Source: Promethearchaeota archaeon (GTDB taxonomy: Archaea > Asgardarchaeota > Lokiarchaeia > Sigyniarchaeales > SOKP01). Taken from it: a DNA stretch of 25,561 nucleotides. The stretch lies in contig JAFGOA010000184.1 in NCBI GenBank assembly GCA_016926735.1, positions 1 through 25,561 of the forward strand. Reading direction: 5' to 3'. The position numbers were made by a program, and so were the translations under genes. Below the pieces are notes generated by a model. The model worked only from the letters and a program-made list of their open reading frames with translations. It ran no database searches and was not told where the DNA came from. Positions 1,212 through 22,555 of this stretch are shown here, piece by piece (the first letter of the stretch is position 1; every line of letters starts with the position of its first letter).

Positions 1212-1250
1212 TTTCACTTCATGAAGATGTCATGAATAAAGATCGTGAAA
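1212..1250 (+). repeat. 39-bp inter-gene repeat, copy R1 (core AGATG)
   Basis: tttcacttcatgaagatgtcatgaataaagatcgtgaaa read directly. Strand label is the arbitrary consensus orientation. Confidence 0.97.
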
Positions 1251-1354
1251 CAAACTCAATTTAGAATAAAAATATAATAATAGGATATTTTAATGTTTCA
1301 AGTATAATTTTTATATTTAGAATAGAAAAGAAAGAGGAATATAAATTATTATTT

Positions 1355-1759
1355 TCATTTTTTTTTAAGAAATTCATCGTATTCTTTAAGATATTCGCTA
1401 TATTTCTTCTGTTTTTCTTCCTTTCTTTTTTTTATATTCAATATTACTTTAATAATTTTTTCTTTTGAAAGAATTATTGCTATCATAAGAATTATCAGAA
1501 AAAATATACTAAATCCAAATAATAGATTATATATTATTATTTCATTTATGGGTATATGATTAATATATATTATATCTCCCGGAGAAGCATATACAAATGA
1601 TGCTATAACTAAGAAAACAAGCAAAATTATAGCGCTAGCAGCAATTAAAATGTATATAAATAGTCTAAGATTTCTTTGAGAAAATAAGTTTTTTTGATTT
1701 GTAGTTTTGTTTGAATTTAACCTTTCTTCTTCTCTTTTATAATAATTATAATCTTCCAT
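1355..1759 (-). CDS. Hypothetical membrane protein (2 predicted TM helices, charged termini)
   Basis: 134-aa ORF with two hydrophobic stretches and an AGGAGGG SD-like motif upstream. Sole gene between R1 and R2. Confidence 0.7.
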   Translation of the reverse strand: MEDYNYYKREEERLNSNKTTNQKNLFSQRNLRLFIYILIAASAIILLVFLVIASFVYASPGDIIYINHIPINEIIIYNLLFGFSIFFLIILMIAIILSKEKIIKVILNIKKRKEEKQKKYSEYLKEYDEFLKKK

Positions 1760-1842
1760 TTTTAAAATTACCCTCCTTCAACTTATATATATTATAAATA
1801 GATATTTAAATATTTTCAATATATCAATTATAAAAAACGCTT

Positions 1843-1881
1843 TATCACTTCATGAAGATATCATGAATATAGATCGTGAAA
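1843..1881 (+). repeat. 39-bp inter-gene repeat, copy R2 (core AGATA)
   Basis: tatcacttcatgaagatatcatgaatatagatcgtgaaa. Confidence 0.95.
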
Positions 1882-1903
1882 TGTAATGAAATTACATAAG
1901 AAA

Positions 1904-1937
1904 GTGAACTACACACGATCTAAAGGTTGTGGCTTCC
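1904..1937. mobile_element. Remnant IS200/IS605-family end hairpin
   Basis: gtgaactac-acacgatc-taaa-ggttgtg-gcttcc matches the GT(C/G)AACTAC...TAAA...GGCTT subterminal hairpin pattern of IS200/IS605 ends. No transposase or tnpB nearby. Confidence 0.55.
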
Positions 1938-1970
1938 TAAAAATGCACAATCGCTTTTCCTAAGGGATAA

Positions 1971-2252
1971 AAAAAATTATTAGCTAATAAACCATTACCT
2001 AAAACGATCGATGAAAATGATTTAAATAATATAAAAACGTTCAAAAATACCCTAAAAAATCTCAGCAAATAATTAAAAGATTTTTATAATAATTGGATAA
2101 AAAATTATAAAGATGATCCCAAATCCTTTAATGAGGAAATGATTCGACTACAAGAAACCATGCAAATGGAAGTAGGTCAATTTGAATCAATTGCTAATAT
2201 TATGAAAGTTGCTCATGATCAGGCAAAAAGTATTATCAATAATATACGATAG
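1971..2252 (+). pseudogene. 5'-truncated gene fragment ending in an SctF/needle-like helix (…LQETMQMEVGQFESIANIMKVAHDQAKSIINNIR)
   Basis: Manual translation gives a protein-like frame from about 1971 to TAG 2250-2252, with one internal TAA at 2070-2072 and no start codon upstream of that stop. Confidence 0.55.
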
Positions 2253-2394
2253 ATTTTGGTTTAAAAAAATTATTCTTATTTTTTAAATTAATTGATAATT
2301 TTCTTTTCAATTTAGATATGTTTTAAATCTTTTTGTTACTATGATCCTATATATTTTTCAAATCTCCATAATTTAAATTAATCTAAGTTTACCT

Positions 2395-2964
2395 CTAAGC
2401 TTTTATTAATTCTACAAATGAATTTGCAAACTTTTCAATTTCATTCCAATTTATAAAATCATATGTTCGATTTTTCTCTAATTTCAAGGGTACGTTAAAT
2501 TCTTGAATGGTCTTATTCATCTCATGAATAAGGAGTTTTTTATACAAATATCCAAATTGAGAATTCTTGGTAAGATCAAAATATGATCCAAAAATTCCAT
2601 ATATATCTGGAACAAGGTTATATTCTTTAATTAGAGATTTTATATAATTTTCTTCAGCAAAATCATAAATTAATTTATCGCATCCTGCTCCACAACTGAT
2701 AAAAAGCCCCAATTTTAAATTTTTTAATTTAATATTGTTATTTTTTACAAAATACCTAATTTCTTTTTTCCATTTATTGGCATAAATTCCAGAACCAATA
2801 ATTATTCCATCAAATATAGCTAAATCAGGAACATTTTTAATAGATTCTTTATCTAATTTATGTAAAATTGTCATTATATTATTTGATTCTAATATATTTG
2901 CAATATAATTTGCAATTTTAAGAGTTATTCCTGTTTTTGTTCCAAATATAATTAAAACCTTCAT
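2395..2964 (-). CDS. Flavodoxin-domain protein (HemG/Flavodoxin_5-like)
   Basis: MKVLIIFGTKTGITLKIA FMN-binding loop, DGIIIGSGIY, and C-terminal YDFINWNEIEKFA. ATG at 2964 preferred over GTG 2973. Confidence 0.85.
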   Translation of the reverse strand: MKVLIIFGTKTGITLKIANYIANILESNNIMTILHKLDKESIKNVPDLAIFDGIIIGSGIYANKWKKEIRYFVKNNNIKLKNLKLGLFISCGAGCDKLIYDFAEENYIKSLIKEYNLVPDIYGIFGSYFDLTKNSQFGYLYKKLLIHEMNKTIQEFNVPLKLEKNRTYDFINWNEIEKFANSFVELIKA

Positions 2965-3340
2965 AGAATTCACAATTTTAGATTTTTCTTCAGTTTTTTT
3001 TATTTAAGTTTTATTTTTTTGTATATATTTTACTATGATTGTTAAAAAAAGATTAACATTTCTTACAATGATCAATACTTTTATAAATTTCTGATGGTAG
3101 TTCGTTAAAAACTCAAATAAAATCTTAATTTATTAAAATAGTTTTCTATTATTCTTATTATGATAATTTTCTCCAGTCTATCTAAAAATTATAAATAAAG
3201 CTTTATTATTAACTATTTTATAAGATTTTAATTGTGATGATTATAAGGATAATAATAATATAATTGATTAAATTTATTTTGATTTAGAATGATCTAATAT
3301 TTTAAAAGTTCTATTAAATTTAGTAAAGTATGGCTAACTT

Positions 3341-3381
3341 ATAGGAATATATATCATTTATGTTTTCAATTATATTCCCAC
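3341..3381 (-). promoter_or_regulatory. Candidate 3'-UTR SECIS-like hairpin
   Basis: Minus strand GUGGGAAUAUA-AUUGAAAACAUAAAUGAUA-UAUAUUCCUAU: 11-bp stem whose two G.U pairs form only on this strand, enclosing UGAA...UGAU (tandem G.A potential). Begins 7 nt after the stop of the UGA-containing gene. Confidence 0.4.
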
Positions 3382-3388
3382 TAAATTT

Positions 3389-3862
3389 TTATTTATTTAA
3401 TTTTCTTAATTCATTTAATAGGATTCTATTTTCAGGAATATCATGCATATTATCACTATAATAGGTATAAGTTATTATTCCATGCTTATCAATAATTAAT
3501 AATCCAGACATTCTCCCCATTTTCAATATTTTGATTTCTTGGTTTAGGTTTCTTACAATTTTTTTATTTTCATCATAAAATATTGGAAATATCCTTGAAT
3601 ATTTTTGATGCATTTTCAAAGCATTTTTTTTATTATCGGCTAAAATTGCGTATATATATGTATTGAGTTTTTTAAATATCGGGAAGTCTTTTCTTAAATA
3701 AACTAAATGCCTTTTACAGTATGGTCAATATATACTCCTTAAAAGAATCACTATAATATTCTGTTTATTTTGAAAATCTTTTATATTTATTACATCTCCA
3801 TCCGTATTCGGTAATTCAAATTCTTGTATTTTTGTTCCTACTAATTTAAATTTATCTTTCAT
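3389..3862 (-). CDS. AhpC/TSA peroxiredoxin-like redoxin, probable selenoprotein (UxxC)
   Basis: ATG 3862 gives MKDKFKLVGTKIQEFELPNTDGDVINIKDFQNKQNIIVILLRSIY-[TGA 3727-3725]-PYCKRHL..., continuing in frame into the listed 3389..3619 ORF (157 aa total). The TGA occupies the first Cys position of the thioredoxin-fold CxxC. Confidence 0.85.
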
Positions 3863-3946
3863 CTTAATATCTATTAAAAAATTATTAAGAATTGGGAGAT
3901 ACCATTATATCTAAATTATATAATTATAAAAAATAGATTATTTTAA

Positions 3947-3985
3947 ATTCACTTCATGAACCTTTCATGAATAAAGATCATGAAT
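3947..3985 (+). repeat. 39-bp inter-gene repeat, copy R3 (core ACCTT)
   Basis: attcacttcatgaacctttcatgaataaagatcatgaat. Confidence 0.95.
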
Positions 3986-4109
3986 CTCCCTATAGAATTG
4001 TGAATTTATGACATTTATAGAATAAATTTTAGTACATAAAATTATTTAATTTGATATAAACATACCATAATTCTACAGTAAGTTGAATTCTTTAAAAAAA
4101 ATTATTATT

Positions 4110-5087
4110 ATGATAGAATTATTTCTATGGATTGGATTATTTGTTGGAGGATATTTAGTTATTTATTTTTCAGCAGATTTATTTATTGACAATCTAAAGG
4201 AAATCTGTTATATTTCTGGAATATCTCCATTTATTATTGGACTTATTGTTGTAGGAATCGATCCTGAAGAATCAATTGCTTCCTTCACCGCATCTTTAAA
4301 TGATCTCTCATACATTGCAGTAGGAAATGTGATTGGAAATTCTATCTTTTCTCTTAGTTTATGTTTTGCTCTTCCAATGTTTTTCTATAAAATTAACTTA
4401 AAAACAATTTCAAATTATTATTTCTGGATTTTATATCTGAGCATGGGTATTATGTTATTAAGCTTTATTCTCAATTATGGATTATTTATTATGGGTTTGA
4501 TCGCTTTAATTGTTTATTTTGTTTATTTAATCAAGAATTTAAGGTACGCTAAAAAAGGAGAAAAGTCAGATATTTTTGATATTGAGAATATCTTAGAAGA
4601 AATTGTAGATATTAGAGAACAAAAAAGTGTATCAAAAATAAAAAAAATTTTCCTTACTATCTTCGGATTGATATTTATTGTCTTAGGAGGAGAATTACTT
4701 ATTTTATCAACAGAACAAATTATCACTTTAACTAAAATTTCAGAAACATTCTTTGGGTTGATTATCATTGCATTTATAACGAGTGTTGAAGAATTAACTC
4801 TTATTTTTAAATCCATTAAAAAGAAGATTTATGAAATTGGTTTAGGGGGAATGATTGGAAAAATCATATGGAATGTATCCTTTACGTTTGGCATAAGTGG
4901 AATTATAGCGTTATCTATAAAGTATACTTTTATTCTTATAATAAATTGGTTTATTTTGTTAAGTTTAATTCTATTTTTCCATGTTAAAATCAGAAGAAAA
5001 AATAACTTTGGAAAAAAAGATGCAATTATCCTTATAATTGTTCTCATTTTCTTTATCTTCATTAATATATATATTCTTTTAAAATGA
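4110..5087 (+). CDS. Na+/Ca2+ exchanger family (CaCA, YrbG-like) antiporter
   Basis: Two-repeat multi-TM protein with alpha-repeat motifs GIDPEE...GNVIGNS and ITSVEE...GGMIGK. ATG 4110 (track start is TTG 4083). Confidence 0.85.
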   Translation: MIELFLWIGLFVGGYLVIYFSADLFIDNLKEICYISGISPFIIGLIVVGIDPEESIASFTASLNDLSYIAVGNVIGNSIFSLSLCFALPMFFYKINLKTISNYYFWILYLSMGIMLLSFILNYGLFIMGLIALIVYFVYLIKNLRYAKKGEKSDIFDIENILEEIVDIREQKSVSKIKKIFLTIFGLIFIVLGGELLILSTEQIITLTKISETFFGLIIIAFITSVEELTLIFKSIKKKIYEIGLGGMIGKIIWNVSFTFGISGIIALSIKYTFILIINWFILLSLILFFHVKIRRKNNFGKKDAIILIIVLIFFIFINIYILLK

Positions 5088-5199
5088 AATCTTATCATGA
5101 ATTTAACCAATCCTATTGTGGGATTAGAAAAATTGTAGTATAATAATGTAATTTGTAATTTTCATTAATTCTATAAAAAAATGACAGAATATTCTTTTC

Positions 5200-5238
5200 T
5201 TTCACTTCATGATCCTTTCATGAATAACGATTGTAAAA
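5200..5238 (+). repeat. 39-bp inter-gene repeat, copy R4 (core TCCTT, right end decayed)
   Basis: tttcacttcatgatcctttcatgaataacgattgtaaaa. Confidence 0.9.
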
Positions 5239-5270
5239 ACAATTATTATTTTTAATGACTATGATTATTC

Positions 5271-5885
5271 TTAAATCGAAGTAAGAATGATTATTATGCC
5301 GATAACGATAAATAAAATTATAGATATTAATTTTATATAAAATTTTGGAATTTTTTCTGTGATAATTGCTCCAAAAAAAACCCCTATCCAAGTTAGACTT
5401 ATTAAAGCGAAAAAAGCACCAAACCAAACTTCAAAAGGGAGATTATACATTAAAGCAAGGGTGATTGTTAAAATTTGTGATTTATCTCCAAGTTCCATTA
5501 TAAGAATTGATAAAAAACTACATAGATATGGATGATTGTTTAACTTTAATCCTCTAGAACGGTTATCATAACAAATTAATTCTTTTTTTTCTTTTCTTTT
5601 TTCCATATATATTGATTTCAATGATTTTGTTTCAAAGAGACCGATTATAATAAATACTATTCCGGAAATAATAGAAATTATAAAAATAGGAACGTATTGA
5701 GTAATTAATGTCCCAAAAATTAAGCTAAGAGATAATATAAAAGCAAATCCTAATGAAGCACCTATTCCTATCTTATATGATTTCTTATGTTCTAAAGAAA
5801 GATTGAATATAATAAGTTGCGTTTTATCTCCAAGTTCGCCTAAAAATAAAAGACCAAAAACATTAAAAAAAATAAAGAAATCCAT
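5271..5885 (-). CDS. TMEM165/GDT1 (UPF0016) family Ca2+/Mn2+ transporter
   Basis: Two copies of the family motif, ELGDKTQ and ELGDKSQ, each followed by TM helices. Confidence 0.92.
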   Translation of the reverse strand: MDFFIFFNVFGLLFLGELGDKTQLIIFNLSLEHKKSYKIGIGASLGFAFILSLSLIFGTLITQYVPIFIISIISGIVFIIIGLFETKSLKSIYMEKRKEKKELICYDNRSRGLKLNNHPYLCSFLSILIMELGDKSQILTITLALMYNLPFEVWFGAFFALISLTWIGVFFGAIITEKIPKFYIKLISIILFIVIGIIIILTSI

Positions 5886-5948
5886 ATCTTCTATAAATCT
5901 AAAATAAAAATATATTTAAAGATAAAAAGGAAGAATTTGTAAAAAATT

Positions 5949-5987
5949 TTCCGCTTCATGAAGATTTTATTAAAATGGATCGAGAAA
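5949..5987 (+). repeat. 39-bp inter-gene repeat, degenerate copy R5 (core AGATT)
   Basis: ttccgcttcatgaagattttattaaaatggatcgagaaa aligns ungapped to the consensus and lies in the expected intergenic slot. Confidence 0.75.
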
Positions 5988-6071
5988 CATATCAGTAGAT
6001 CACAAGAAAAAAATAATTTTTAATTAACTAAAGTATGATACTGCTAATTTTAGGTTGTGTGTTGATCACAT

Positions 6072-6743
6072 TCACCAAATATATGGAATTAAACGATAAT
6101 GTGTTTTTTTCATATATTCTTTATATCCTTCAAGATCATTTTCTAACATTTTATCTTCAAAATATGTTCTTAAAATGAATGTTATAATAAATAATCCCGC
6201 AGGTATTAAAGTATAGAGTGAACCAAGTGCTAAACAATGACATATTAAGAATATAATAATTCCTGTATACATAGGATGACGAACATATTTATATGGACCA
6301 GAGATAATTACTTTATGTTCTTCCTGAACTTCAATACTTTTTATAAGGTAAGTATTTTCTCTTAATACTAAGAGATAAATAATTGACGATATTATTACTC
6401 CAATAAATCCAATAATTCTAATAAATATTGGTAAATATGACCATTGAAATCGTATAACATCGAGTCCTGGTATGACGAAAGACGGAATCATTAATATAAA
6501 CAAGATAAGAACAATGATTTTATCCCATTTTTGTTTAGGTTTTGGATTCTCTAATCTTTTTTTTAGTAATTCAGGATTCTTTTTATTTAAATAATATAAA
6601 ACGATAAAGATAAATATTCCCCAAATTATTAAATAAATCCATGCTTCAATCCAAAATATTGTTCCTGCTGGTATAAAAAGACTTGAGGCAATAAATAGTA
6701 AAAAAATTCCAACTTTTACTATAGATTTTGCATTTAATAACAT
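6072..6743 (-). CDS. Isoprenylcysteine carboxyl methyltransferase (ICMT/PEMT)-family membrane protein
   Basis: Multi-TM ORF with GPYKYVRHPMY and FEDKML...GYKEYMKKTHYRLIPYIW motifs. Confidence 0.88.
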   Translation of the reverse strand: MLLNAKSIVKVGIFLLFIASSLFIPAGTIFWIEAWIYLIIWGIFIFIVLYYLNKKNPELLKKRLENPKPKQKWDKIIVLILFILMIPSFVIPGLDVIRFQWSYLPIFIRIIGFIGVIISSIIYLLVLRENTYLIKSIEVQEEHKVIISGPYKYVRHPMYTGIIIFLICHCLALGSLYTLIPAGLFIITFILRTYFEDKMLENDLEGYKEYMKKTHYRLIPYIW

Positions 6744-7041
6744 TTTTTAATAATCTTAAACCAAAAGATTTTTTGATTTTTCATAATATTTTTTAATATA
6801 AAAACTTTTAGGTGTACCTAATTTGGAAAATAATAATAGATCTTATATATCTTAAAATTAGATATTCTTATATTTTATTATTTAATATTTTAATTATAAA
6901 GATTTTAAATTATTTATCATATTATTCGAATCTTTTCAGTAATGTTTTTGGGAAAGTTTATATAAATTTCTTTTATAAAATAATTGTGTGTAAAAAAAGG
7001 TAGATCTTCCTATATAATCTAAAATCTAATCTTGAATATTC

Positions 7042-7080
7042 TTTCACTTAATGAAAACTTCATGAATAAAGATCGTGAAA
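7042..7080 (+). repeat. 39-bp inter-gene repeat, copy R6 (core AAACT)
   Basis: tttcacttaatgaaaacttcatgaataaagatcgtgaaa. Confidence 0.95.
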
Positions 7081-7084
7081 AATG

Positions 7085-7470
7085 TGATGAAATAGTATTA
7101 ATAATTCCTGTTAAATTTTTTCTATTGTAGTTTTTGTTTCATCGTAAGCCTTTTCAGGAGATAAATAATGAAAAGGGCCATAAGATAATGAGATACCTGC
7201 ATTTGCTATTAATATTCGAATAGAACCAAAGGCATCTACTGTTTTTTTAACGATATTTTTTAGACTAAAAGGATCTGTTACATCACATACGTGTCCAATT
7301 ATGCAATCTCCAAATTCTTTTTTAAAATCACTAAGTGTTTTATTAACATTCTTTTCATTACGAGAACATATTGCTACTTTGCATCCTTTTTTAAGAAATA
7401 TCTCTGCTAACTTTTTACCAATTCCACTTGTAGAACCTATTATTAAAGCAGTTTCATTTATTAATTTCAT
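7085..7470 (-). pseudogene. Short-chain dehydrogenase/reductase, N-terminal half only
   Basis: GSTSGIG, CDVTD and ANAG motifs. The frame stops at 7111, but a one-base shift in the A-run at about 7116-7121 continues NLTGIINTISS up to repeat R6. The catalytic YxxxK half is absent. Confidence 0.85.
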
Positions 7471-7795
7471 AGAGTTAAATTATAATTTAATAATTATATT
7501 AATTCAATAGATATTAGTTTTTTATAAAAATTATCTTAATTATTTTATAAGTTTGAAATTATTTTAATATATGAGGAAGAAGAAGAATCTTATCCAGAGT
7601 AAAAAATGGAGATTTCATTTCTGAATTTAAAAGTACAAAATATTGATACGATTTTTCATATATATATTTCCCTATTCAGAGTAAGGTAAGTTATTAAATA
7701 AATAATAAATAAGAGTAAATTAATCTTAAAAAATAAAGAATCTTAAGGTTATTATTGTTTCTAATTATTTCCTCCGTTTTGCATATTCTCCTAGG

Positions 7796-7860
7796 ACAAA
7801 TAGGAAAACCTTAAATATTATTTCATATAGAATAAATTTAGTACAAATTATCCTATTTGT
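7796..7860 (+). promoter_or_regulatory. Putative promoter with 10-bp inverted operator pair upstream of the GH5 gene
   Basis: ACAAATAGGA (7796-7805) and TCCTATTTGT (7851-7860) bracket a BRE/TATA-like GAAAACCTTAAATA. Confidence 0.4.
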
Positions 7861-7896
7861 ATAAAAATAATTACTTTTAGATTAAAGTGGTTTAAA

Positions 7897-10227
7897 TTGA
7901 AATATACCAAACAAATATATAAAGTAAAATCATTAAGAAGGATATTATTAATTGTATTCTTTATTCTTATGCTTATTATTCCACTATATATTGGAGGAAT
8001 TTTAACTAATTCTGTGAATCATAATAAAAATAATTTCTCCATAGATCTACAAGAAAATGGCGAAAATTTGGCACCACATGCAAGCTTTCGAGTCAGTCCA
8101 AATGGAGTAAAAACAGGAGGTATTGTTTCATGTTATGCTCTTACTTCATATGATCTAGATGGTAAAATTACAACATATAATTGGGATTTTGGAGATGGAA
8201 CAACTGGTTCTGGAAGTGAAGTATATCATCAATATTCATTAACGGGTAAATATATTATTACTTTAACTGTAATAGATGATGGAGGATTAACAGATATATA
8301 TTCACAAAGTGTAAGTGTTGATGTTGCAGGTTCACCTGAGCAAGTAGATACAGCCAAATTCAATTGGGAAGATGGTACTACAGAAGGATTTGATTTTAAT
8401 ACATGGAATGTCCCATCAGGAACTTCCGGTTCAGTTGAGAATGATATAAATATAGCTTATTCTGGAACTCATTCATTAAAATGTAATGTAGAGACTGCAA
8501 ATGTTAGTACAGTTGATTTTAGAATAGATTCTACAATACCTCTTATAGAGCCTGGTTCTACGGTTTTATTTAGATATTGGATTCCTTCAGGAACACCAAT
8601 TTCAATAGTTCAGCCATATATAATGCCACACACATCAGATTGGTCTGAAAGTCGATGGTTTAGTGATTGGACACCTATTGATGGTGTTACAACAAATAGT
8701 TGGAATGAAGGATTGATTATACTTTCTGCTGATATAGATCCAACATGGGGTGTTCAAATAGGTATTCAAATTGAAATAGATGGTGCATCATCATTTTCAT
8801 TTAATATTGATTCAATTGATTGGTTTAATCCTTCAATTCCAAAAGCTTCTTTTGAATATTCTGTGATGAGACCTAATCCTGGAGAATTAATTAATTTTGA
8901 TGCTTTAAATTCCTTAGATCAATATTTAGTATCTTCTGATCCTGATGGAATAATAACTAGTTTTGAGTGGGATTTTGGAGATGGAACAATAGATAGTGGA
9001 TCAGTTCAAACTCATTCATATTCTAGTGCAGGTAAATATCCCGTAACATTAACTATTACAGACAACGAGGGAAATATTCATGGTATAACTCGTGTGATCT
9101 GGTGCGGTATAGAAGAACGTCCTTTTGCTCCCACATTACAAATACAAGATGCTCAAATTGTTGATGCTGATGGTAGACCTGTTTCTTTTAAGGGAGTAGC
9201 AATAGTAGACGATCTAACATATACAGAGGCAGATTTTGATTACTTAAAATATGAATGGAAGATGGATGCAATACGACTCCCTCTTATTATAGAAAGATGG
9301 TACTATGCAACAGCAACGGAGAGAGAAAATTACCTTGCAACATATGATAAATATCTACAATGGACATTTGATCGTGGAATGTATGTCTCGTTTGATCCTT
9401 GGCATGAAAGTGGACAAGGAGATGGTGAATTAATACTTTTTAATGATATAAAAGATGCCTTTCATATTGCGGCTCAACGTTATGGACAATGGACACATAT
9501 GATATGGGAAATCGTTAATGAACCTCATAAAGCAGATTGGGCAACATGGGCACCAATGGCAGAAGAATTAATTGATATTGTTAGATCATATAATCCTGCT
9601 TCGACAGCATGTGTCGTTCCGGGAGTTCATTGGGCTCAGGATTTTGATGTAAGAAATCGCCCAATAAATAGACCTAATGTTGGATATTCTGTTCATCCTT
9701 ATCCTCATGTTTATATGGTTGGAGATACATGGACATATGAATCATGGGATCAAGGATTTGGATATATTGTAAATGAAGGTTATGGGCCAATAATCAATAC
9801 TGAATGGTCATATCCTTTATTTGAGGAAGGAAATCGAGAATATGGTGAATTAATTCTATCCTATATGGAAGAAAGAAACATAGGATTCTTAGGGTGGATA
9901 TATGGATCACCTGAAAGCTGGGGATCAATGTCTCGTGATCTTAATGTCCGAGGAGATTGTCAGCAATTATGGTGGGAGTACTTAAATGGTATTTGGTCGC
10001 CTGAATCATCTCCACCTGATTATGAGATTGGAGATGTAAACCATGATCAACAAATTACAATTGTAGATGCATTATTAATATCTCAATACGAAGTTGGTTT
10101 TAATCCTTCTCCATTTTATCCTGAACAAGCAGATGTAAATATGGATGGTATCATCAATATTATCGATGCATTACTTATTGCACAATTTACTGTTGGTCTA
10201 ATTCCTTCTTTACCGCCTCCAACCTGA
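7897..10227 (+). CDS. Secreted/anchored GH5 glycoside hydrolase: PKD - CBM-like - PKD - GH5 - type I dockerin
   Basis: N-terminal TM segment, two PKD motifs (WDFGDGT), GH5 acid/base WEIVNEP and nucleophile NTEW, and duplicated dockerin loops GDVNHDQQITIVDALLI and ADVNMDGIINIIDALLI. Confidence 0.88.
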   Translation: MKYTKQIYKVKSLRRILLIVFFILMLIIPLYIGGILTNSVNHNKNNFSIDLQENGENLAPHASFRVSPNGVKTGGIVSCYALTSYDLDGKITTYNWDFGDGTTGSGSEVYHQYSLTGKYIITLTVIDDGGLTDIYSQSVSVDVAGSPEQVDTAKFNWEDGTTEGFDFNTWNVPSGTSGSVENDINIAYSGTHSLKCNVETANVSTVDFRIDSTIPLIEPGSTVLFRYWIPSGTPISIVQPYIMPHTSDWSESRWFSDWTPIDGVTTNSWNEGLIILSADIDPTWGVQIGIQIEIDGASSFSFNIDSIDWFNPSIPKASFEYSVMRPNPGELINFDALNSLDQYLVSSDPDGIITSFEWDFGDGTIDSGSVQTHSYSSAGKYPVTLTITDNEGNIHGITRVIWCGIEERPFAPTLQIQDAQIVDADGRPVSFKGVAIVDDLTYTEADFDYLKYEWKMDAIRLPLIIERWYYATATERENYLATYDKYLQWTFDRGMYVSFDPWHESGQGDGELILFNDIKDAFHIAAQRYGQWTHMIWEIVNEPHKADWATWAPMAEELIDIVRSYNPASTACVVPGVHWAQDFDVRNRPINRPNVGYSVHPYPHVYMVGDTWTYESWDQGFGYIVNEGYGPIINTEWSYPLFEEGNREYGELILSYMEERNIGFLGWIYGSPESWGSMSRDLNVRGDCQQLWWEYLNGIWSPESSPPDYEIGDVNHDQQITIVDALLISQYEVGFNPSPFYPEQADVNMDGIINIIDALLIAQFTVGLIPSLPPPT

Positions 10228-10851
10228 GATTTATAGTAGTTCTTTAAGGAAAGTCAAAATTTTTAAAAATAGATTTTTTTTTTATTTTTTAATAAACTAT
10301 ATGTTTTTTCAATTAAGGTATAAATTTTATACCCCTTTCAAAGTGAAACATGTGTTAGTTCTTAAATTGATAAAGATTTGATATAGTATTATATTTGGTA
10401 TAAAATTTTTATTTTATAATCAATTCATTTTTTGTATCACATACATGATATCTTTATTTGTATAGTTTAGCGTGAAACACATGGCTCACTTAAAAATTCC
10501 ATTAATTTTCCATTATAATTCTTTGAGATTCTTTTTAATTTCAAATTTTTATATATTAGGGAACATTTTGTAAAAAGAATTATATAATTGAAGATAGAAA
10601 CATTATATATTAATTGATTTTTAATGTTATGCAATTCTTCAAAAATCATCATCTATAGATTGGTGAAAGTAAAACATGAAAATAACTAAAGAATTAGAAT
10701 ATATTATAATTCAATTTATTCTGAATATGTTGAAAATTCTAAACAAATCTTAAAAAAAAAAATAGGAAATATGGTTTGATTTTTTCAATATTAGTTTCAA
10801 TCTTTTTTTTGATTTTAGTACTTATTATTCATTTTTATAGAGAAAAATCAT

Positions 10852-13800
10852 TTAACTAACATAGTACCTGGCTACAAGTAATGCATCTGTTATATTGATA
10901 ATTCCATCACCATTTACATCAGCTACATCAGGATTGAAATTAATTGGTGATAATCCAACATAATATTGAGCAATAAATAATGCATCTCTTATATCAATAG
11001 ATCCATCTGAATTAACATCTCCTCGTCCATCAACAATCACAGGAATAAAAATCGTAGAAATTGCTTCATTTCCATGATCATCCCATGCAATTATGTTAAT
11101 CTCATTAATTAAAACCGGTAGATTGTCAAGATTTATAATAATTTCTTCTCCAGAATTCCATGTAGTACTATACTTGATTAAGCGATCATTATGATAGATC
11201 TCATATCCTTGTCTTGCTCCTTCTGTAGGAGGATCTATATCTTCAAGAATAACAATTAGTTGAGCTGAAGGATTACTATCTACACATTTAGAATCACCTG
11301 AGACGTAAATTTTTGGGGGACTCCAAATAAGACTTAAAATTGACCATGTTTCGGATTTGATTTGATGTATACCATCATCCACAATAACATACCATTTAAA
11401 AACTCCATTATCATCGAATATGAGAGGTTCCAAGTGAATTGATGCTGTCATTCCATTTGGAACATTATATTGTACACCTATAATCTTCCCATTTGATGCA
11501 TTGCAGAAATATACATCCATAGAATCTCCATCTGGATCAGATACATCAACACGTAGAACAGTTTTATTAGATAAAACTATCCCGTTATGTTCTGGAAAAG
11601 GATTTTCAGGCATATTTGGTGGTTTTACTGGAAATCTCCATGTAGGTGATCGTTTTGTATCGATACCATCATCCACAATAACAAACCATTCAAAAGATCC
11701 ATCATCAATGAATATGAGAGGATTTAAGGCAATTGATACTGTTGTTCCATTTAGAACACTATATTTTGCATGTATAATTCTATCATTTGAGGCATTACAG
11801 AAATATACATCCATAGGTTCCCCATCTGGATCAGATACATCGATACTCAAAAAAAGTATATCTATTCCTTCCCAAATAGGTAAAATCTGTTTATATTCTG
11901 CAAGAGGATTTTCAGGTATATTTGGGGGAGATCGTGTTGTAAATGAGTATATAGGTGATCGTGTCTTATTTATCCCATCATCAGCAACAGCATACCACAT
12001 ATATTCTGTTGCATATTCTAAATTTTCCAATTTTACAGATAATATATTTTCTTCTTCACTACTAATCAAGCGACTATATATTAATCTGTCATTTTCAGCA
12101 TTATAGAAAGAACAATTCATCTCATCCTCAACATTAGGGAAGTATATTTCTATAGTGGGATTTATAGAGATTCCACATATCCCATTAGGAGGGGTTAAAA
12201 AAGATGGAGTGAATGGAGGTATATTTATCATATAGGGCTGATCATCCCACCATAAATCATACTCAATATCATATGGACTAACGATTAGAATATAATAGAC
12301 TCCACTTGATAATTGTTGGTAAGAATAATCACTCTTGTATATTTCTCTATGAAGCTCATCATTATACACATTAAAATAAATTTCATCAGATATTGGATTC
12401 ATTGAACCCCTATAGGTTAATTGAATTAATAATAACTCTTCTCCCTCATCAACATATATCTCATACCAATCACTATCCATTGAAACTCCAAATCCATTAA
12501 TATCACTTAACCATTTTCCTTCATATGACGAAATATCATATGCGGAACTGATAATATCATTTTCTTCATAATTATCATCTATATATGGACAACTCAACCA
12601 TTGTAAATTATATAAATTTCCTTTATTTTCACCAACTATTTTAATATAATATCTTCCACTTGTAGGTAAGATATAATTAATATATTCATTGTCAGTTGTT
12701 GAATTGCTCCATGTAATTAATTCAAGAGAGGAATTATATATCTCAATATTGATATCCCCATAATTATGAATAAAATTTAGGTTTACTTCAAGTCGTTCTT
12801 CTCCAGGATAAATGTGGATTTTATACCAATCATCGTCTCCTTGCATTCCCCATCCTGATAAATTATAAGAATTAGGTTGAAGGAATTTTCTTTCATATAA
12901 GGAAAGATCATAAGCATAGGTAGCATGATCATTTTCTTCATATTTATCTTCTGGTATTGGAATATCATCCCACCAAAAATCATATTCAATTGATTCAAGA
13001 TAAGTTCCAGAAATACCAAGATAATGTACTCCACTTTTTGGTGGAAAATATTCGATCTTATCCTTTTTAGTAGATAACAACTGAATTAAACCCTCATCAT
13101 AAAGTTGAATAGAAAGGTCATTTTGGCTGATATATTCTAAATTTAGCTTTAAATACTCTCCTTCATCAATAAAGATTTCAAAAAAATCTGTACCGCCATT
13201 ATTAATACCTGGACCATATATATCACTCAACCATTCTCCCTTACGCATTGAAATATTATATGGTGCACTCAAGCTATTTGGAGAATAATTATCTTCTAAA
13301 TTTCCTAATAAATACTCAATTATATTATTCCCAAGAAAGGTTTCACTATTTAGTGGGGGTATTACTGCAGTAAAATTAAATAATCTTAGCTCTGTTGGTA
13401 TCCAAGTGAAATTTATTGTTTTTTTCTCATTTACTTGAAGATCTGTATTTATTAAAGAATTTACTATCATATTATCATAATATAAAAAGAAATTCACATT
13501 GGATTCACTAAAGATACCCTTATTCATTATAGTTGCATTAATAATATACGAATTATATAATCTGCAATTTTTTGGGATTTCCATAGAAACAGACAAATCG
13601 TGATCTAATTCTACAAAAGAAATATTTGCTAAACCCTCTCCTAAAATTGCTTTTGCTATTAAATAATAGATTCCAGACTCACTTGGAGTAAAATTAATTA
13701 ATTCATTTTTTCCTAAGGTTGGAGATATACTTAATGCTTCCATAATTGGTTCTCCTATAGAGGAAGGAGAAGATCGATAGAGATGAAGATCAAAATCTGC

Positions 13801-15954
13801 TCCTGTAGGAACGTCTAATTGAATATAATACTTTTGACCTTGTGTAAGATTTACATAAGCTCCTAAGGCATGTTTTCCATAAGGATTTATCACACTTGAT
13901 GATAAATCAGCAGCTATGTAAGAATTATCACTTAATTCTTGAGTTACGGCTTCTATTGCTGTATCAATATTTATCCTTCCATACCCTTCATGTAGATCTT
14001 TTCCACCTCTTTCTAACGTTGGAGAAAAAGAATTAGAAATTTCTCTTTTATTAGGGTATGTTTCTGTTGCTGACATTAAAATTAATGCTTTTACTTGTTT
14101 TGCTTGGTCTCCAGTATATTCCCAATTTTGATGACCTCCCATCGCTTCAATTAAAAGATTTGTAGCTCCAGCCACTGCCGGACAAGCCATAGAAGTACCT
14201 TGAGCACCATATAGATCATTAGAATATTTATCTGTATCATAAATTCCACTCCCATCATTATCATTTGTATCAGCTGAAAACATTTGTAAATTATAAAAAC
14301 TACCCCCTGGTGCCGTAATATCTGGTTTTGTTGTACTCTGAGTAAAGGAGTGCCCTCCTTGACTGCTATATGATGCTATATTATCACTTAAACTCATTGC
14401 AGCAACAGTAATTACATTATCAGCATCTCCAGGACTGCCTATGTTATTTGATCCTGGTCCATAATTTCCTGCACTAACTACAGTGACAATACCATTTTCA
14501 ACAGCATTATTCACGGCATTAATTAAATTTGTTTCACCTGGTTCTCCTCCTAAACTCATTGAAATCGTGGTAATATTATAGCGTTCTTTATTTTCAATAA
14601 CCCATTCAACTCCATCAACTATGTTTATATAATCTAAGGCAATTTTAACTCCAACTAGGCGAGCTTGGGGTGCAACACCTCTCCATAGGTTTTTATTATC
14701 ATTATTTAGAGAGGAATCAAATGGCCAATGTATCTCATATCTTGATCTCATTCTAAAGTGAGAGATAATATCATCTCCATCATTATCTATCTTATCTACG
14801 AAAATAATCAATTGATAATAACCAAGATTATCACTATTAACTGTATATGATAAAACATCATTCCATAGAGGAGAATCATTAGTATATGATGTAACAACCA
14901 TATCATTATATAGAAGAATTACTGTGAGTTGACATTCATCAAGAGATGAAGTTAAATCTTCAAATTCACAATAAATTTCAATTGTTCCTACTTTAGAGAC
15001 ATTAAATCTACAAATTCTAAATCCCATCTCTTCAGGACTACTATTTCCCTCATCATCATGAAGATCGAATGTTTGTGTAGAAACTGCTCGATTTAATTGA
15101 TCCAATGCAATTTCTCCATTACCTGCTGCAATTCCTGCACAATGAGTACCATGTCCAACATTATCATATGGAGATAATTGCCCGTTAACACCATCCCACC
15201 ATCCAACTATTTTATGATCAAATGATTGATCCTTATATCCAGGTGTAAAGAAACTATGGGTTGCATCAATACCGCTATCTATAATAGCAATTGAACTAGA
15301 ATTATCTCCTTCATAACCTAGTGTATTCCATACATACGGTCTAAGATTCATAGATCTTGATGTATAATATAAATGTGTATTTACTGGTTTATTTTCTTCC
15401 AGAAAAAATGGAATATCATATTCATTAAGTAATTCATAAAACATTCTAAGACCATTATGGTTTATTGAACCCCCAAAACCAATAATTGCAGAATCATAAA
15501 TTGAATTGATGGTTCCATTTAACCATTTAAATAAATCAATTGTCTCTAAATAATCTATTTTAGGAAATTGGATGATTATAGAAATATTGCTTCTTTCAAT
15601 CGTGTAATTCTCTTTGGTAGTATCTTCTATTAACATTGTATTAATTCTAGAATCTAATGGAAACTCATAAGATTTATGATTATTAAGAAGTTCTAGCTTA
15701 GGTTCAAAATCATCATTTATATTATTTTCATTCAAATCAGCATTACCAATTAATGATCGCCATTTATTAAGATCGAGTTGATCTATTGGGTCTAAATTCA
15801 TTAACAATTTAACATTATCCTCTTTATTAGGATTTATTGGGAATTCTCCTATATCCGTAGAATTATTTGATATCTTAATAATATTAAATATCGACGGAGT
15901 AACAAAGATAAATACAAGAATAAACAAAATTGATTTTTTTCTTAATTTTTCCAT
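10852..15954 (-). CDS. Large secreted S8 (subtilisin-like) serine protease with PPC/CARDB/Ig-like repeats and C-terminal dockerin
   Basis: Catalytic triad motifs IIDSGID, GHGTHCAG and GTSMACP, oxyanion SAGN, internal repeats, and dockerin loops GDVNSDGSIDIRDALFI and ADVNGDGIINITDALLV. Confidence 0.92.
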   Translation of the reverse strand: MEKLRKKSILFILVFIFVTPSIFNIIKISNNSTDIGEFPINPNKEDNVKLLMNLDPIDQLDLNKWRSLIGNADLNENNINDDFEPKLELLNNHKSYEFPLDSRINTMLIEDTTKENYTIERSNISIIIQFPKIDYLETIDLFKWLNGTINSIYDSAIIGFGGSINHNGLRMFYELLNEYDIPFFLEENKPVNTHLYYTSRSMNLRPYVWNTLGYEGDNSSSIAIIDSGIDATHSFFTPGYKDQSFDHKIVGWWDGVNGQLSPYDNVGHGTHCAGIAAGNGEIALDQLNRAVSTQTFDLHDDEGNSSPEEMGFRICRFNVSKVGTIEIYCEFEDLTSSLDECQLTVILLYNDMVVTSYTNDSPLWNDVLSYTVNSDNLGYYQLIIFVDKIDNDGDDIISHFRMRSRYEIHWPFDSSLNNDNKNLWRGVAPQARLVGVKIALDYINIVDGVEWVIENKERYNITTISMSLGGEPGETNLINAVNNAVENGIVTVVSAGNYGPGSNNIGSPGDADNVITVAAMSLSDNIASYSSQGGHSFTQSTTKPDITAPGGSFYNLQMFSADTNDNDGSGIYDTDKYSNDLYGAQGTSMACPAVAGATNLLIEAMGGHQNWEYTGDQAKQVKALILMSATETYPNKREISNSFSPTLERGGKDLHEGYGRINIDTAIEAVTQELSDNSYIAADLSSSVINPYGKHALGAYVNLTQGQKYYIQLDVPTGADFDLHLYRSSPSSIGEPIMEALSISPTLGKNELINFTPSESGIYYLIAKAILGEGLANISFVELDHDLSVSMEIPKNCRLYNSYIINATIMNKGIFSESNVNFFLYYDNMIVNSLINTDLQVNEKKTINFTWIPTELRLFNFTAVIPPLNSETFLGNNIIEYLLGNLEDNYSPNSLSAPYNISMRKGEWLSDIYGPGINNGGTDFFEIFIDEGEYLKLNLEYISQNDLSIQLYDEGLIQLLSTKKDKIEYFPPKSGVHYLGISGTYLESIEYDFWWDDIPIPEDKYEENDHATYAYDLSLYERKFLQPNSYNLSGWGMQGDDDWYKIHIYPGEERLEVNLNFIHNYGDINIEIYNSSLELITWSNSTTDNEYINYILPTSGRYYIKIVGENKGNLYNLQWLSCPYIDDNYEENDIISSAYDISSYEGKWLSDINGFGVSMDSDWYEIYVDEGEELLLIQLTYRGSMNPISDEIYFNVYNDELHREIYKSDYSYQQLSSGVYYILIVSPYDIEYDLWWDDQPYMINIPPFTPSFLTPPNGICGISINPTIEIYFPNVEDEMNCSFYNAENDRLIYSRLISSEEENILSVKLENLEYATEYMWYAVADDGINKTRSPIYSFTTRSPPNIPENPLAEYKQILPIWEGIDILFLSIDVSDPDGEPMDVYFCNASNDRIIHAKYSVLNGTTVSIALNPLIFIDDGSFEWFVIVDDGIDTKRSPTWRFPVKPPNMPENPFPEHNGIVLSNKTVLRVDVSDPDGDSMDVYFCNASNGKIIGVQYNVPNGMTASIHLEPLIFDDNGVFKWYVIVDDGIHQIKSETWSILSLIWSPPKIYVSGDSKCVDSNPSAQLIVILEDIDPPTEGARQGYEIYHNDRLIKYSTTWNSGEEIIINLDNLPVLINEINIIAWDDHGNEAISTIFIPVIVDGRGDVNSDGSIDIRDALFIAQYYVGLSPINFNPDVADVNGDGIINITDALLVARYYVS

Positions 15955-16042
15955 TGGGTTTCCTTATTTTTATTGATTTTGATTTATTTTATTTCTATTA
16001 AATGTAAAAATAACATTGTTATATGAAGGAATTTTATGAGTA

Positions 16043-16076
16043 TATAAAGGTTTAAGGTGTACTTTTCGAACTATTT
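16043..16076 (-). promoter_or_regulatory. Shared 34-bp promoter/operator motif P, copy 1 (upstream of S8 protease)
   Basis: Plus strand tataaaggtttaaggtgtacttttcgaactattt. The minus strand ends in TATA-like TTTATA. Confidence 0.7.
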
Positions 16077-16370
16077 TTGACTATTTTTGGATTGGTTAAA
16101 GTAAATTATTACTTAATTGATATAACCAATCTGTTTTATATCACATGAATAGTGCTCGGAATAAATTAATTATTTTTCTGCAATATTTTTAAATTTCATC
16201 CTATATCACACAGAAACATGTGATTCAGTAATTAATTTGATGAAAATTAGATGAAAAATATAATAAATCTCATTATAAAGTAGATAAATATTATTAATTT
16301 TTTCAATTAATTCAATTTAGGTATCATGCAGAGGATATTTAAGTATATATGAATCTTCATAAAACACATG

Positions 16371-16409
16371 TTTCACGATCTTTATTCATGAAAGGGTCAT
16401 GAAGTGAAA
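16371..16409 (-). repeat. 39-bp inter-gene repeat, copy R7 (inverted; core CCCTT)
   Basis: tttcacgatctttattcatgaaagggtcatgaagtgaaa. Confidence 0.97.
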
Positions 16410-16571
16410 AAAAAATAATATAATTTTTAATTATAATTTTAGTTTTTGTTTAAATTTGGTCCTGATCCCTTTATAAATAAAAGAATTTGTCTAAAATTAG
16501 TCCTGATCTGATTTAAATAATTCAATATCTTAAAAACTATCATAATAAAAACACATAAGAATAAAATAAAA

Positions 16572-17225
16572 ATGAAATTAAATAAAAAATCCATAAAACA
16601 CAAGAGAAAATTACAAATCACATTTGTAGTTATAACTCTCTTGATACCCTCATTAGCTTTTGTATTTACACACCCCAATCTTAATACATTAAATAATAAT
16701 GAAAAACTATTAGATTTAAAAACATCTGCAAATTCAGAATCAGGATATTCCGTGGCTATTAAACAGTATCCTTTATCTGGATTATTTCTAGTTGCTCGAG
16801 TGATATGGATAAATTTAGATCCATTTGCGGCCACTGTCTTTACTGAAGCTACAGAACTCGCAATAGGTGCTATAGTAGAGAAAATTTGTGAAGTAGCTGT
16901 GATAGCAATATTTGCTGCTGCAGGGATTTCTATTCCTGCATCAGTGTTATATATACCCTTACTTCTAATAAGTTTAGCTCTTGCAGTTGCTCTAGCTTTT
17001 TTTTGGAATGCACATATGAATGCGAGAGGCGGAGATATTAAATTCGGAATTGGAGTACAAACATTCATAATTCCGACGTTATATTTTTATTTAGATAACT
17101 CTCGTGACTCTGTGGATAACTATGATCTAATGATCCCTTATATGGACACTATTCTCTATCCTAATGCAGTATTATTATCAAATTTTATCGGATACTTACC
17201 AACAAATACTTGGATAGGAGTGTAA
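16572..17225 (+). CDS. Hypothetical secreted/membrane protein with long hydrophobic Ala/Ile-rich core
   Basis: 217-aa ORF with a basic plus hydrophobic N-terminus, TATA-like TTTATAAATA upstream and a hairpin/T-tract downstream. Confidence 0.7.
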   Translation: MKLNKKSIKHKRKLQITFVVITLLIPSLAFVFTHPNLNTLNNNEKLLDLKTSANSESGYSVAIKQYPLSGLFLVARVIWINLDPFAATVFTEATELAIGAIVEKICEVAVIAIFAAAGISIPASVLYIPLLLISLALAVALAFFWNAHMNARGGDIKFGIGVQTFIIPTLYFYLDNSRDSVDNYDLMIPYMDTILYPNAVLLSNFIGYLPTNTWIGV

Positions 17226-17258
17226 TTATCTGGATGGGAAAGTCATTACCTAAATAAA

Positions 17259-17315
17259 ATTCTCTATCCATTAAATTACTATTAAAAAATATATGGATAG
17301 GGAATACTTTTTTTT
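17259..17315 (+). terminator. Hairpin plus T-tract, putative terminator
   Basis: attctctatccat...atggatagggaat (13-bp stem, one G.U) followed by a T run. Confidence 0.45.
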
Positions 17316-17444
17316 CTTTTATTTATTGATTCGATTTTGATTTTTATCTGTATTATTTTAATTATAGACTGTCGATTATTAAATATTGAAAGAAACTAAT
17401 CTTTCTCAGAAGTTATTATAGTTCTAACTAAAATTAGAATCTAT

Positions 17445-17483
17445 TTTCACGATCTTTATTCATGACATCTTCATGAAGTGAAA
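17445..17483 (-). repeat. 39-bp inter-gene repeat, copy R8 (core AGATG)
   Basis: tttcacgatctttattcatgacatcttcatgaagtgaaa, the exact reverse complement of R1. Confidence 0.97.
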
Positions 17484-17679
17484 GAGAATTATAAAATAAT
17501 TAAAATATATAAAAAAAAAGATACTATTACTAAAGGTTTTAAACCTTTTCTAAAACATATGTTCTATAAATTAAATTCTCAGATTATTGTAAGATTTTAT
17601 GTTATTCCAAAAGAAAATATCAAAAATAAAAAAAAAAAAATCTTTTTTCTAATTCTAAGCTAATCTCAAATATATTTAA

Positions 17680-18639
17680 TTATTCAAAAATAACTAATAT
17701 GAAAGAATCTTGGTAAATTAATTCATTTTGCAGACTATAAATTCTAATTTCAACATTAAAGAGACCACTTAATGTTAGTGGAAATGTTAAAACAATTAGA
17801 GAATTACATTTTTTCCTTATTATCATATTATGATTAAGATCTAATTCGTAATATCCTTCAAATTCTGTAGGGTTAAGAATATTCCATGCTATAAGTCCTA
17901 CGTTTTGGTTACTATTAAAAAGAATGAATTTTTTCTCAAACCAATTAATCTCTTTTCCTGTTGTGATTTTATTGATTATTATATCAGAAGACATTTTAAG
18001 TTGAAAAGTCATTATTTTCTCATCATCAACAAATTGATAAAAACTAAATTCTTTCATTATACCTATCTCTTGATCAAACCTAATCTCAAAATATCCATCT
18101 ATAATCAAATCATCATCTTCATTTGTGATAAAATTTGCTAACACTAGACCAAATTCATTCTCCAATGGACTAAGGAATAGTGGGCCAAATCCAAAAGCCA
18201 TATTATACATTACTTCTTCTATATATTTATTTATTGGAATTGAAGCATTGATAGGTATAGGACATAATAATATTGGGGGTCTGGAGTCCCAATCAGGATT
18301 TTTACGCAAATCGGTTGTTATACTCTTATTTATGAAAAAATTTCCACTCCATTCAAAATCCCATTTATAATCTATTTCTTGAATTTTTTCAAGTGTAATT
18401 TTATATATTCTTCCTTTTAAAAAGTTTTCCCTCATTATACGAAAATCACCCCACATTGTATTTTCCTGTAATGATCCATTTATAGTATTGGTTGTGACTT
18501 CATAGTAAAATGTGTCTCCTTCTTTGATTCCAAGATAATATTCAGTATCAGAAGCACCTAGACTCATTGTAGGAAAACTAGAAATTGCGATCACTAATAT
18601 CATTAACCCTACAAATGCAATTTTATTATTTTTTTTCAT
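17680..18639 (-). CDS. Hypothetical secreted protein
   Basis: 319-aa ORF with a signal-peptide-like N-terminus followed by YLGIKEGDTFYYEV. Preceded by motif P. Confidence 0.75.
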   Translation of the reverse strand: MKKNNKIAFVGLMILVIAISSFPTMSLGASDTEYYLGIKEGDTFYYEVTTNTINGSLQENTMWGDFRIMRENFLKGRIYKITLEKIQEIDYKWDFEWSGNFFINKSITTDLRKNPDWDSRPPILLCPIPINASIPINKYIEEVMYNMAFGFGPLFLSPLENEFGLVLANFITNEDDDLIIDGYFEIRFDQEIGIMKEFSFYQFVDDEKIMTFQLKMSSDIIINKITTGKEINWFEKKFILFNSNQNVGLIAWNILNPTEFEGYYELDLNHNMIIRKKCNSLIVLTFPLTLSGLFNVEIRIYSLQNELIYQDSFILVIFE

Positions 18640-18690
18640 ATTTTATTTCATTTTAAAGTTATTTAATTAATTTTGATTTTATTTGATATT

Positions 18691-18724
18691 TATAAAGGTT
18701 TGAGGTGTACTTTTCGAACTATTT
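18691..18724 (-). promoter_or_regulatory. Shared 34-bp promoter/operator motif P, copy 2
   Basis: tataaaggtttgaggtgtacttttcgaactattt. Confidence 0.7.
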
Positions 18725-18778
18725 ATAATAACATAGATTTTTTTATTTTAATTTACTATTTTAAACTTCTAATAATTG

Positions 18779-18817
18779 TTTCACGATCTTTATTCATGAA
18801 TGGTTCATGAAATGAAA
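18779..18817 (-). repeat. 39-bp inter-gene repeat, copy R9 (core ACCAT)
   Basis: tttcacgatctttattcatgaatggttcatgaaatgaaa. Confidence 0.96.
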
Positions 18818-18924
18818 GAGAAAATAAATTTCTAAATTTGTAAAATTTTGGTCCATATCCATTATAAATATTATAGAATATTTTTTTGAATTATATAATT
18901 TTTATTTAAATTATCTAAATAAAA

Positions 18925-19875: not shown

Positions 19876-19898
19876 ATCTTTTTTTTTTTCTTTATGAG

Positions 19899-19937
19899 AT
19901 TCACGATCTTTATTCATGATATCTTCATGAAATGAAA
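19899..19937 (-). repeat. 39-bp inter-gene repeat, copy R10 (core AGATA)
   Basis: attcacgatctttattcatgatatcttcatgaaatgaaa. Confidence 0.96.
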
Positions 19938-19972
19938 GAAGAGATATTTAATATATTATATTAATAATTAGA

Positions 19973-20614: not shown

Positions 20615-20713
20615 AAATAGTTCACTAATAATAGAAAATTGGATATAATTAAATAAAATAATATTGTTATAATAAATTTACTAGAATTAGATTGAGAGAT
20701 ATCTTTTTTTTAT

Positions 20714-20752
20714 TTTCACGATCTTTATTCATGATATCTTCATGAAGTGAAA
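20714..20752 (-). repeat. 39-bp inter-gene repeat, copy R11 (core AGATA)
   Basis: tttcacgatctttattcatgatatcttcatgaagtgaaa. Confidence 0.97.
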
Positions 20753-20886
20753 TAAAGACTTCTATAATACACTATAGTTTTCTTTAGCTACTTTAAGTTT
20801 CCATAAAATTTGTATAAAATATATAAGATAATAAAAAATTAATAGAGAGGGGTAATATATATTTTTTAAAGATATTATTTTATTTG

Positions 20887-21368: not shown

Positions 21369-21490
21369 AAATATTTAAATTAATAATAATACCATAAATG
21401 TTCTATTCACAGAAGGTTTTGATGATATTGTGCAAATAATAAATTCTTATAGCAAACATATTTTAATAGTTAATATAAGCAATAGTTCGG

Positions 21491-21529
21491 TTTCACGATC
21501 TTTATTCATGGCATCTTCATGAAGTGAAA
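21491..21529 (-). repeat. 39-bp inter-gene repeat, copy R12 (core AGATG)
   Basis: tttcacgatctttattcatggcatcttcatgaagtgaaa. Confidence 0.97.
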
Positions 21530-22531: not shown

Positions 22532-22555
22532 TTTTACATAAACTATGTTATATCG

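Follow-up and report, generated by a model that had tools for sequence, protein, structure and literature searches.

A 39-bp repeat that occurs in clusters in the genomes of one Lokiarchaeial genus is probably the junction site of a cassette-shuffling system specific to that genus. Its copies have a fixed anatomy, keep a uniform polarity within arrays, join flanks with independent histories and divide into three linkage blocks. Judged by these comparisons, the three-box site behaves like a mark of gene packets being swapped between sister species of the genus. It does not belong with integron sites and is no copy of the cell's likely dif, and we infer that the catalysis is site-specific and that the enzyme is neither IntI nor, probably, XerA. 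We found no published description of the site in the literature.

Asgard archaea, the closest known relatives of eukaryotes, have genomes rich in bacterial-type genes. To our knowledge, how such genes enter Asgard archaea and move within them is largely unknown. The 39-bp site offers a concrete bait for the enzyme, and a marker for gene flow within this Lokiarchaeial genus.

Anatomy, distribution and polarity of the site

The window, as we call the whole 25,561-nt stretch of DNA analysed, contains 17 copies of a 39-nt element with the consensus TTTCAC-TTCATGA-N5-TCATGAA-TAAAGATC-GTGAAA. A search for TTCATGA-N5-TCATGAA with up to two mismatches returns 18 matches in the window, 17 of them repeat copies, where shuffled sequences lead one to expect 0.51 (maximum 3). 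The copy described in the initial annotation, at positions 1212-1250, reads TTTCAC TTCATGA AGATG TCATGAA TAAAGATC GTGAAA. The anatomy proposed there is found in full: inverted arms, TCATGA boxes whose starts lie 11 nt apart, a third box (TCGTGAA), and TTTCAC/GTGAAA ends. The element can equally be read as two 8-bp palindromes, TTCATGAA, with an 11-bp period, a third box, ATCGTGAA, following at a distance of 13 bp, and TTTCAC/GTGAAA as the outer pair.

Six copies lie on the plus strand (1212-7080), with the N5 core given in brackets: 1212-1250 (AGATG), 1843-1881 (AGATA), 3947-3985 (ACCTT), 5200-5238 (TCCTT), 5949-5987 (AGATT; a degenerate copy) and 7042-7080 (AAACT). Eleven lie on the minus strand (16371-25304): 16371-16409 (CCCTT), 17445-17483 (AGATG), 18779-18817 (ACCAT), 19899-19937 (AGATA), 20714-20752 (AGATA), 21491-21529 (AGATG), 22556-22594 (ACCTT), 23432-23470 (CCCTT), 24200-24238 (ACCTT), 25130-25168 (ACCTT) and 25266-25304 (ACCTT). 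The last of these is truncated, with CTATAC in place of GTGAAA. All eight cores that had been listed for the repeat are present.

Among 94 to 99 copies from four genomes, conservation covers every position from 1 to 39 and reaches into the flanks, from about -3 to +40. The exceptions are positions 15, 16 and 18 inside N5, which vary freely, and positions 26-28, which vary more weakly. Positions 14 (A) and 17 (T) of the supposedly variable core are ~91 to 94% conserved, so that N5 is not free. The commonest cores are AGATG (28 copies) and ACCTT (27), and intermediates are also present. The TAAAGATC segment, the apparent “spacer” or “bulge” of the element, is near-invariant in sequence, its GATC especially.

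The source genome (G000; 3.88 Mb, 26% G+C, 238 contigs) is archaeal, with xerA adjoining orc1/cdc6. A profile search of this genome gives ~40 significant matches on 10 of the 238 contigs, always clustered and mostly at contig ends. Across the 121 genomes of the order, the repeat is restricted to four genomes of one genus (36, 29, 27 and 5 matches), while the other 117 have zero or one match each. The same repeat is present in metagenome-assembled genomes (MAGs) labelled Promethearchaeota (Loki type). Metagenome contigs yield only 10 matches, mostly identical to sister-genome contigs, and no copy was found in the viral contigs searched. Three genomes of another genus (g6) have one TTCATGA-N5-TCATGAA copy in common; it sits inside an ordinarily conserved stretch, and we reject the motif as a conserved single-copy site of other genera. 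The 21 one-mismatch matches in genome G122 are unrelated occurrences with no flanks in common.

Neighbouring copies are co-oriented in 63 of 65 pairs (p ~1e-16), at a median spacing of 920 bp. The cassettes between them are mostly single-gene, with a median length of ~1 kb, and their genes are unrelated: a PfkB kinase, a flavodoxin, a Na/Ca exchanger, GDT1, an ICMT-type methyltransferase, DUF4291, an antitoxin with ParE, DUF4261 and SUKH-1. The longest open reading frame (ORF) of each cassette is sense to the site in 27 cases and antisense in 28. Site polarity is therefore a property of the array and not of the genes. Uniform polarity regardless of gene direction is expected from assembly by oriented recombination, and it argues against a terminator, operator or mRNA element.

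The window holds two inverted arrays, separated by a central 9.3-kb segment (7081-16370) toward which the GATC-GTGAAA sides of both bordering sites face. Array edges adjoin ordinary genes. The central segment carries a PKD-PKD-GH5 cellulase-dockerin gene (7897-10227, plus strand) and a 1,700-aa S8 subtilase-CARDB-dockerin gene (10852-15954, minus strand); the presence of such secreted, dockerin-bearing enzymes in a Lokiarchaeon may be a sign of a surface system of the cohesin-dockerin type.

A promoter-like element of ~34 bp recurs on the minus strand, consisting of AGTTCGAAAAGTACACCTCAAACC and then a TATA-like box (16010-16076, 18658-18724, 22465-22531 and 23240-23306). It stands upstream of four unrelated cassette genes, and also just downstream of sites in contig C15 and in genome G034. 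This recurrence suggests that some cassettes carry a shared promoter or operator. The left array also contains gene fragments, namely the N-terminal half of a short-chain dehydrogenase (SDR; 7111-7470, minus strand) and the C-terminal piece of a redoxin (3389-3619, minus strand). A 209-aa ORF at 16439-17068 (minus strand) looks spurious; the overlapping membrane-protein ORF at 16572-17225 (plus strand), which has a signal or transmembrane start, is the likelier gene. No flank recurs more often in the genus than the 5' region of this ORF with its adjoining site.

Flank histories and the place of exchange

We compared 109 distinct copies with their flanks, taken from the four genomes of the genus and from metagenome contigs. 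Among 5,253 site pairs, none has both flanks in common and 15 have exactly one in common, some at 96 to 100% identity; all of the genomes are fragmented MAGs, so some of these “different contexts” could be strain mixtures. In G034, one site has on its upstream side the flank found upstream of window site 5200-5238 (98% identity over 783 bp), and on its downstream side the one found downstream of window site 16371-16409 (89%). These two sites lie 11 kb apart in the window, inverted relative to each other. A 121-bp mini-cassette between two sites is common to two contigs of G006, and the homology stops inside each bounding site. The SDR gene is full length in three sister genomes; in the window it is cut at most 5 nt from the GTGAAA end of site 7042-7080. 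Homologues of the window's cassettes are scattered across many contigs of the sister species. On contig C171 of G000, a cassette bounded by repeats lies between the genes for isocitrate dehydrogenase and glutamate dehydrogenase; G006 and G009 have unrelated DNA without the repeat in that interval.

Flanks with independent histories in sister species thus support the reading of the repeat as a recombination site, with N5 in a separately assorting segment. No excised circles or empty sites were seen in the genomes compared, and exact-protein look-ups of two cassette proteins for strain-level contexts gave nothing usable. The antitoxin/ParE gene pair, whose cassette is bordered in the window by site 20714-20752, stands in G006 in the reverse orientation to its sites, a change that pure site-specific exchange could not have produced. 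We also considered a model in which the central block is duplicated on insertion, as a target-site duplication. Identical centres occur in 14% of adjacent pairs versus 8% of random pairs, and the model gains no support from this.

Pairs of sites with one flank in common show which parts of the site travel with which flank, within the limits of 7 to 8 partly dependent pairs. Where the upstream flank is the same, mismatches at positions 1-13 fall to 0.066, against 0.16 for random pairs (P = 0.03). Where the downstream flank is the same, there are no mismatches among 80 comparisons at positions 30-39, against 0.11 for random pairs (P = 0.004). The centre, positions 14-29, mismatches at the random level in both classes. 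That is, the upstream flank is accompanied by the left arm and the downstream flank by GATC-GTGAAA, while the centre (N5, the second box and TAAA) assorts independently of both. Within the centre there is linkage between the parts: at 26-29, the AAAA and TTAA variants occur only with A16-type N5. The site therefore consists of three linkage blocks, with N5 in the middle one. Because box 2 is invariant, the two borders can be placed only at ~6-15 and ~28-34.

Truncated copies have junctions at 25|26 (contig C153) and at 33|34 (window 25266-25304, where the replacement of GTGAAA by CTATAC marks the break). Together, the inferred junctions fall at ~13|14, 25|26, 28-34, 33|34 and ~39|40, and not at a single phosphodiester bond. 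Since some of them lie on the right, at positions 28-34, exchange cannot be narrowed to N5. Such a spread looks less precise than the crossovers of integrons or of Xer, and gene conversion or homologous recombination could account for it. In a small, partly dependent sample, the linkage pattern fits exchange inside the site.

Candidate enzymes and rival explanations

No recombinase linked to any array was found in the four fragmented genomes of the genus. G000 encodes one tyrosine recombinase (XerA), two IS607-type serine recombinases and one Tn3-type resolvase, none of them on array contigs. No SSV-type integrases (PF16795) were found, and Y1 transposases (RAYT, PF01797) are absent from G000 and G009 and were set aside as candidates. 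One array is bordered by the gene of an rve-type DDE transposase that has HTH domains at its N terminus (C153:798-1769; L026), but this gene occurs in G000 only and is probably an insertion sequence that entered the array. Aloposons (PMC8813620) are unrelated, tRNA-targeting giant-gene elements. The enzyme may be encoded on unbinned DNA.

Three loci with serine recombinases were noted in the course of this search. A Tn3-family transposon piece on the 3.1-kb contig C12 (L078:1002-3102) has a resolvase-type serine recombinase beside DUF4158, the N-terminal part of Tn3 transposases, and may be contamination or a plasmid. One IS607-type element (C188:36585-38102; L084:1086-2603) pairs a serine recombinase with TnpB. 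A second serine recombinase of the same build (C162:36545-37697; L085:2046-3198) neighbours an ORF that is cut by the contig end and has no family match.

The initial annotation had proposed a dif-like crossover core and XerA as a possible enzyme, to be checked against the organism's predicted dif. In G000, a palindrome of the form AATATTACA-AGGTATTA-TGTAATATC lies 15 bp upstream of xerA (C228:10159-10184; L001:1111-1136). A palindrome of the pattern (G/A)ATATTACA-N8-TGTAATATC lies 15 to 50 bp upstream of xerA in all nine genomes checked, from four genera: besides G000, it is found 20 to 50 bp upstream in G006, G009, G034 and five genomes of three other genera. Single-copy as a two-strand match, it has a geometry of about 10-6-10, and its arms have nothing in common with TTCATGA or with the cassette repeat. 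From its placement and sequence, this palindrome is a better dif candidate than the repeat, or possibly a xerA operator, and it gives this archaeal family a testable candidate. XerA of the five other-genus genomes is 73 to 74% identical, and the repeat is absent from those genera. The repeat is thus unlike the xerA-linked palindrome, and XerA is conserved without it, so the dif-like, XerA-based reading is not supported.

We accordingly consider it improbable that the site is dif-like in the sense that host XerA makes its cuts at either edge of N5 and uses TCGTGAA as an accessory arm, which would make this an archaeal version of the Xer-dependent dif modules. In favour of this reading, all four genomes of the genus have XerA, and no other tyrosine recombinase was found in G000 and G034; inverted arms flank an asymmetric centre, and N5 resembles the overlap region of a heteroduplex in assorting independently of the two flanks. 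Moreover, the central region of single-recombinase Xer sites spans 6 to 11 bp (PMC5357621). However, dif is defined by two ~11-bp arms around a 6-bp centre (PMC8371274), and the repeat has perfect 7-bp arms around 5 bp, plus a third box; extending the arms to 11 bp gives 7/11 symmetry and a 7-bp centre. The independently assorting block, at ~16 bp, is too long for a 6- to 8-bp overlap. Likeness to the host dif and conservation together with Xer also mark a dif site, and the repeat is confined to one genus.

Another reading, that a folded single strand is at work, either as an attC-like hairpin with an integron-type integrase or as an RNA hairpin, we regard as very improbable. A 13-bp stem, with an 8-nt bulge on one side and a 5-nt loop, can form in either strand (-7 to -9 kcal/mol, z ~-3); in their layout and in their toxin-antitoxin and SUKH cargo the arrays are reminiscent of chromosomal integrons, and integrons have been reported in Asgard genomes (PMC9668308). 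Yet across the 13 stem pairs of 98 distinct copies there are 151 one-sided changes versus 4 compensatory ones, the same as in shuffles, and Watson-Crick cells number 1121 of 1274 versus a shuffle mean of 1122; the sole clear compensatory pair is A1/T39 of site 3947-3985. The hairpin covariation that had been named as the alternative to recombination was looked for and not observed, and structure is not what selection keeps. Sequence conservation extends to the bulge and to two loop positions, the orientation of the sites does not depend on transcription, and an Rfam scan of the window returned no family at the gathering score. No IntI was found in the genomes of the genus or beside the arrays, PF00589 detecting only XerA in the fragmented G000 and G034 assemblies, and extra weak or fragmentary matches in G006 and G009, none of them on array contigs.

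It is also unlikely, though less so than either of these, that the repeat is primarily a regulator, insulator or terminator palindrome bound by protein, or a REP-like element, and that shuffling is a by-product of homologous recombination and gene conversion between 39-bp repeats. The variable junction positions, the mosaic interior of the site and the lack of any dedicated recombinase among those found are consistent with this explanation, as are the tandem 8-bp palindromes with their 11-bp period, which resemble binding sites of protein dimers, and the location of sites in intergenic DNA near gene ends. A gene-linked regulatory element predicts otherwise than a polarity that ignores genes and is uniform within arrays, and the copies are confined to variable clusters instead of being dispersed. 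Evenly spread crossovers would leave N5 partly linked to the upstream flank; the class concordance is 4/10, against ~0.78 expected (a tally, with a rough P of ~0.01).

Under the reading that we prefer, that of a cassette junction, the site most likely acts as double-stranded DNA, bound by a sequence-specific protein through its three or four TCATGA/TCGTGA-type boxes and the invariant GATC. Between co-oriented copies would lie single-gene packets that each have a promoter of their own, and breakage and rejoining inside the site would excise, insert, invert or exchange these packets, with exchanges clustering at the two borders of the ~16-bp central segment (N5, TCATGAA and TAAA). More tentatively, and with less than an even chance, this may be an undescribed Asgard site-specific recombination system, in which a genus-specific protein, not IntI or XerA and possibly of no known recombinase family, reads a composite three-box duplex and exchanges at two points ~16 bp apart. 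If so, these archaea would possess an integron-like gene-capture platform built from different parts.

Comparison with known systems

REP/BIME elements occur as hundreds of dispersed copies together with a Y1 (RAYT) transposase. The repeat is likewise a short, imperfect palindrome between genes, but has ~40 clustered copies in G000, a genome that, like G009, has no Y1 transposase. As in the archaeal XerA/dif system (PMC2958812, PMC8371274), inverted arms enclose an asymmetric centre, and XerA is the sole tyrosine recombinase in the genome. Archaeal dif is, however, single-copy, built as 11-6-11 and conserved with XerA, whereas the repeat is multicopy, genus-specific and different in sequence and geometry.

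Overall, the system resembles a chromosomal integron or CALIN (an integrase-less attC cluster) and, loosely, pdif modules, and it departs from the defining features of both. Acinetobacter pdif modules (XerC/XerD; PMC6449649, PMC13141974) are likewise discrete modules bounded by short inverted-arm sites, and are reshuffled between replicons without a module-borne recombinase. In contrast, pdif sites are 28 bp long (11-6-11), resemble the host dif and alternate in orientation, whereas the repeat has a 7-5-7 core with a third box and is unrelated to the candidate dif. Modules of the pdif type are flanked by inverse sites, and only 2 of the 65 adjacent pairs here are inverted.

Integron attC sites carry RYYYAAC/GTTRRRY boxes and recombine as a folded bottom strand with extrahelical bases, their structure being kept while their sequence varies. 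The repeat has YYYCAC/GTGRRR boxes instead: its ends read (C)TTTCAC and GTGAAA(C), with the CAC/GTG triplet in 72 to 87 of 94 copies. It is conserved in sequence across its 39 bp and shows no extrahelical bases or covariation. Archaeal integrons with canonical attC sites, including archaeal CALINs, have been published (Ghaly et al. 2022; PMC9668308). With these the arrays share co-oriented sites, mostly single-gene cassettes of unrelated function including one toxin-antitoxin pair, a site family that is homogeneous per lineage, relatives that differ in their cassettes, and arrays without an adjacent integrase. They differ in that no IntI is found in the four repeat-bearing genomes, that cassette genes are found in both orientations, some of them with a promoter element of their own, and that the repeat forms many small arrays at separate chromosomal places, without an attI-intI platform. 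Here, a sequence-defined, non-attC site fills the same architectural role without an integron integrase.
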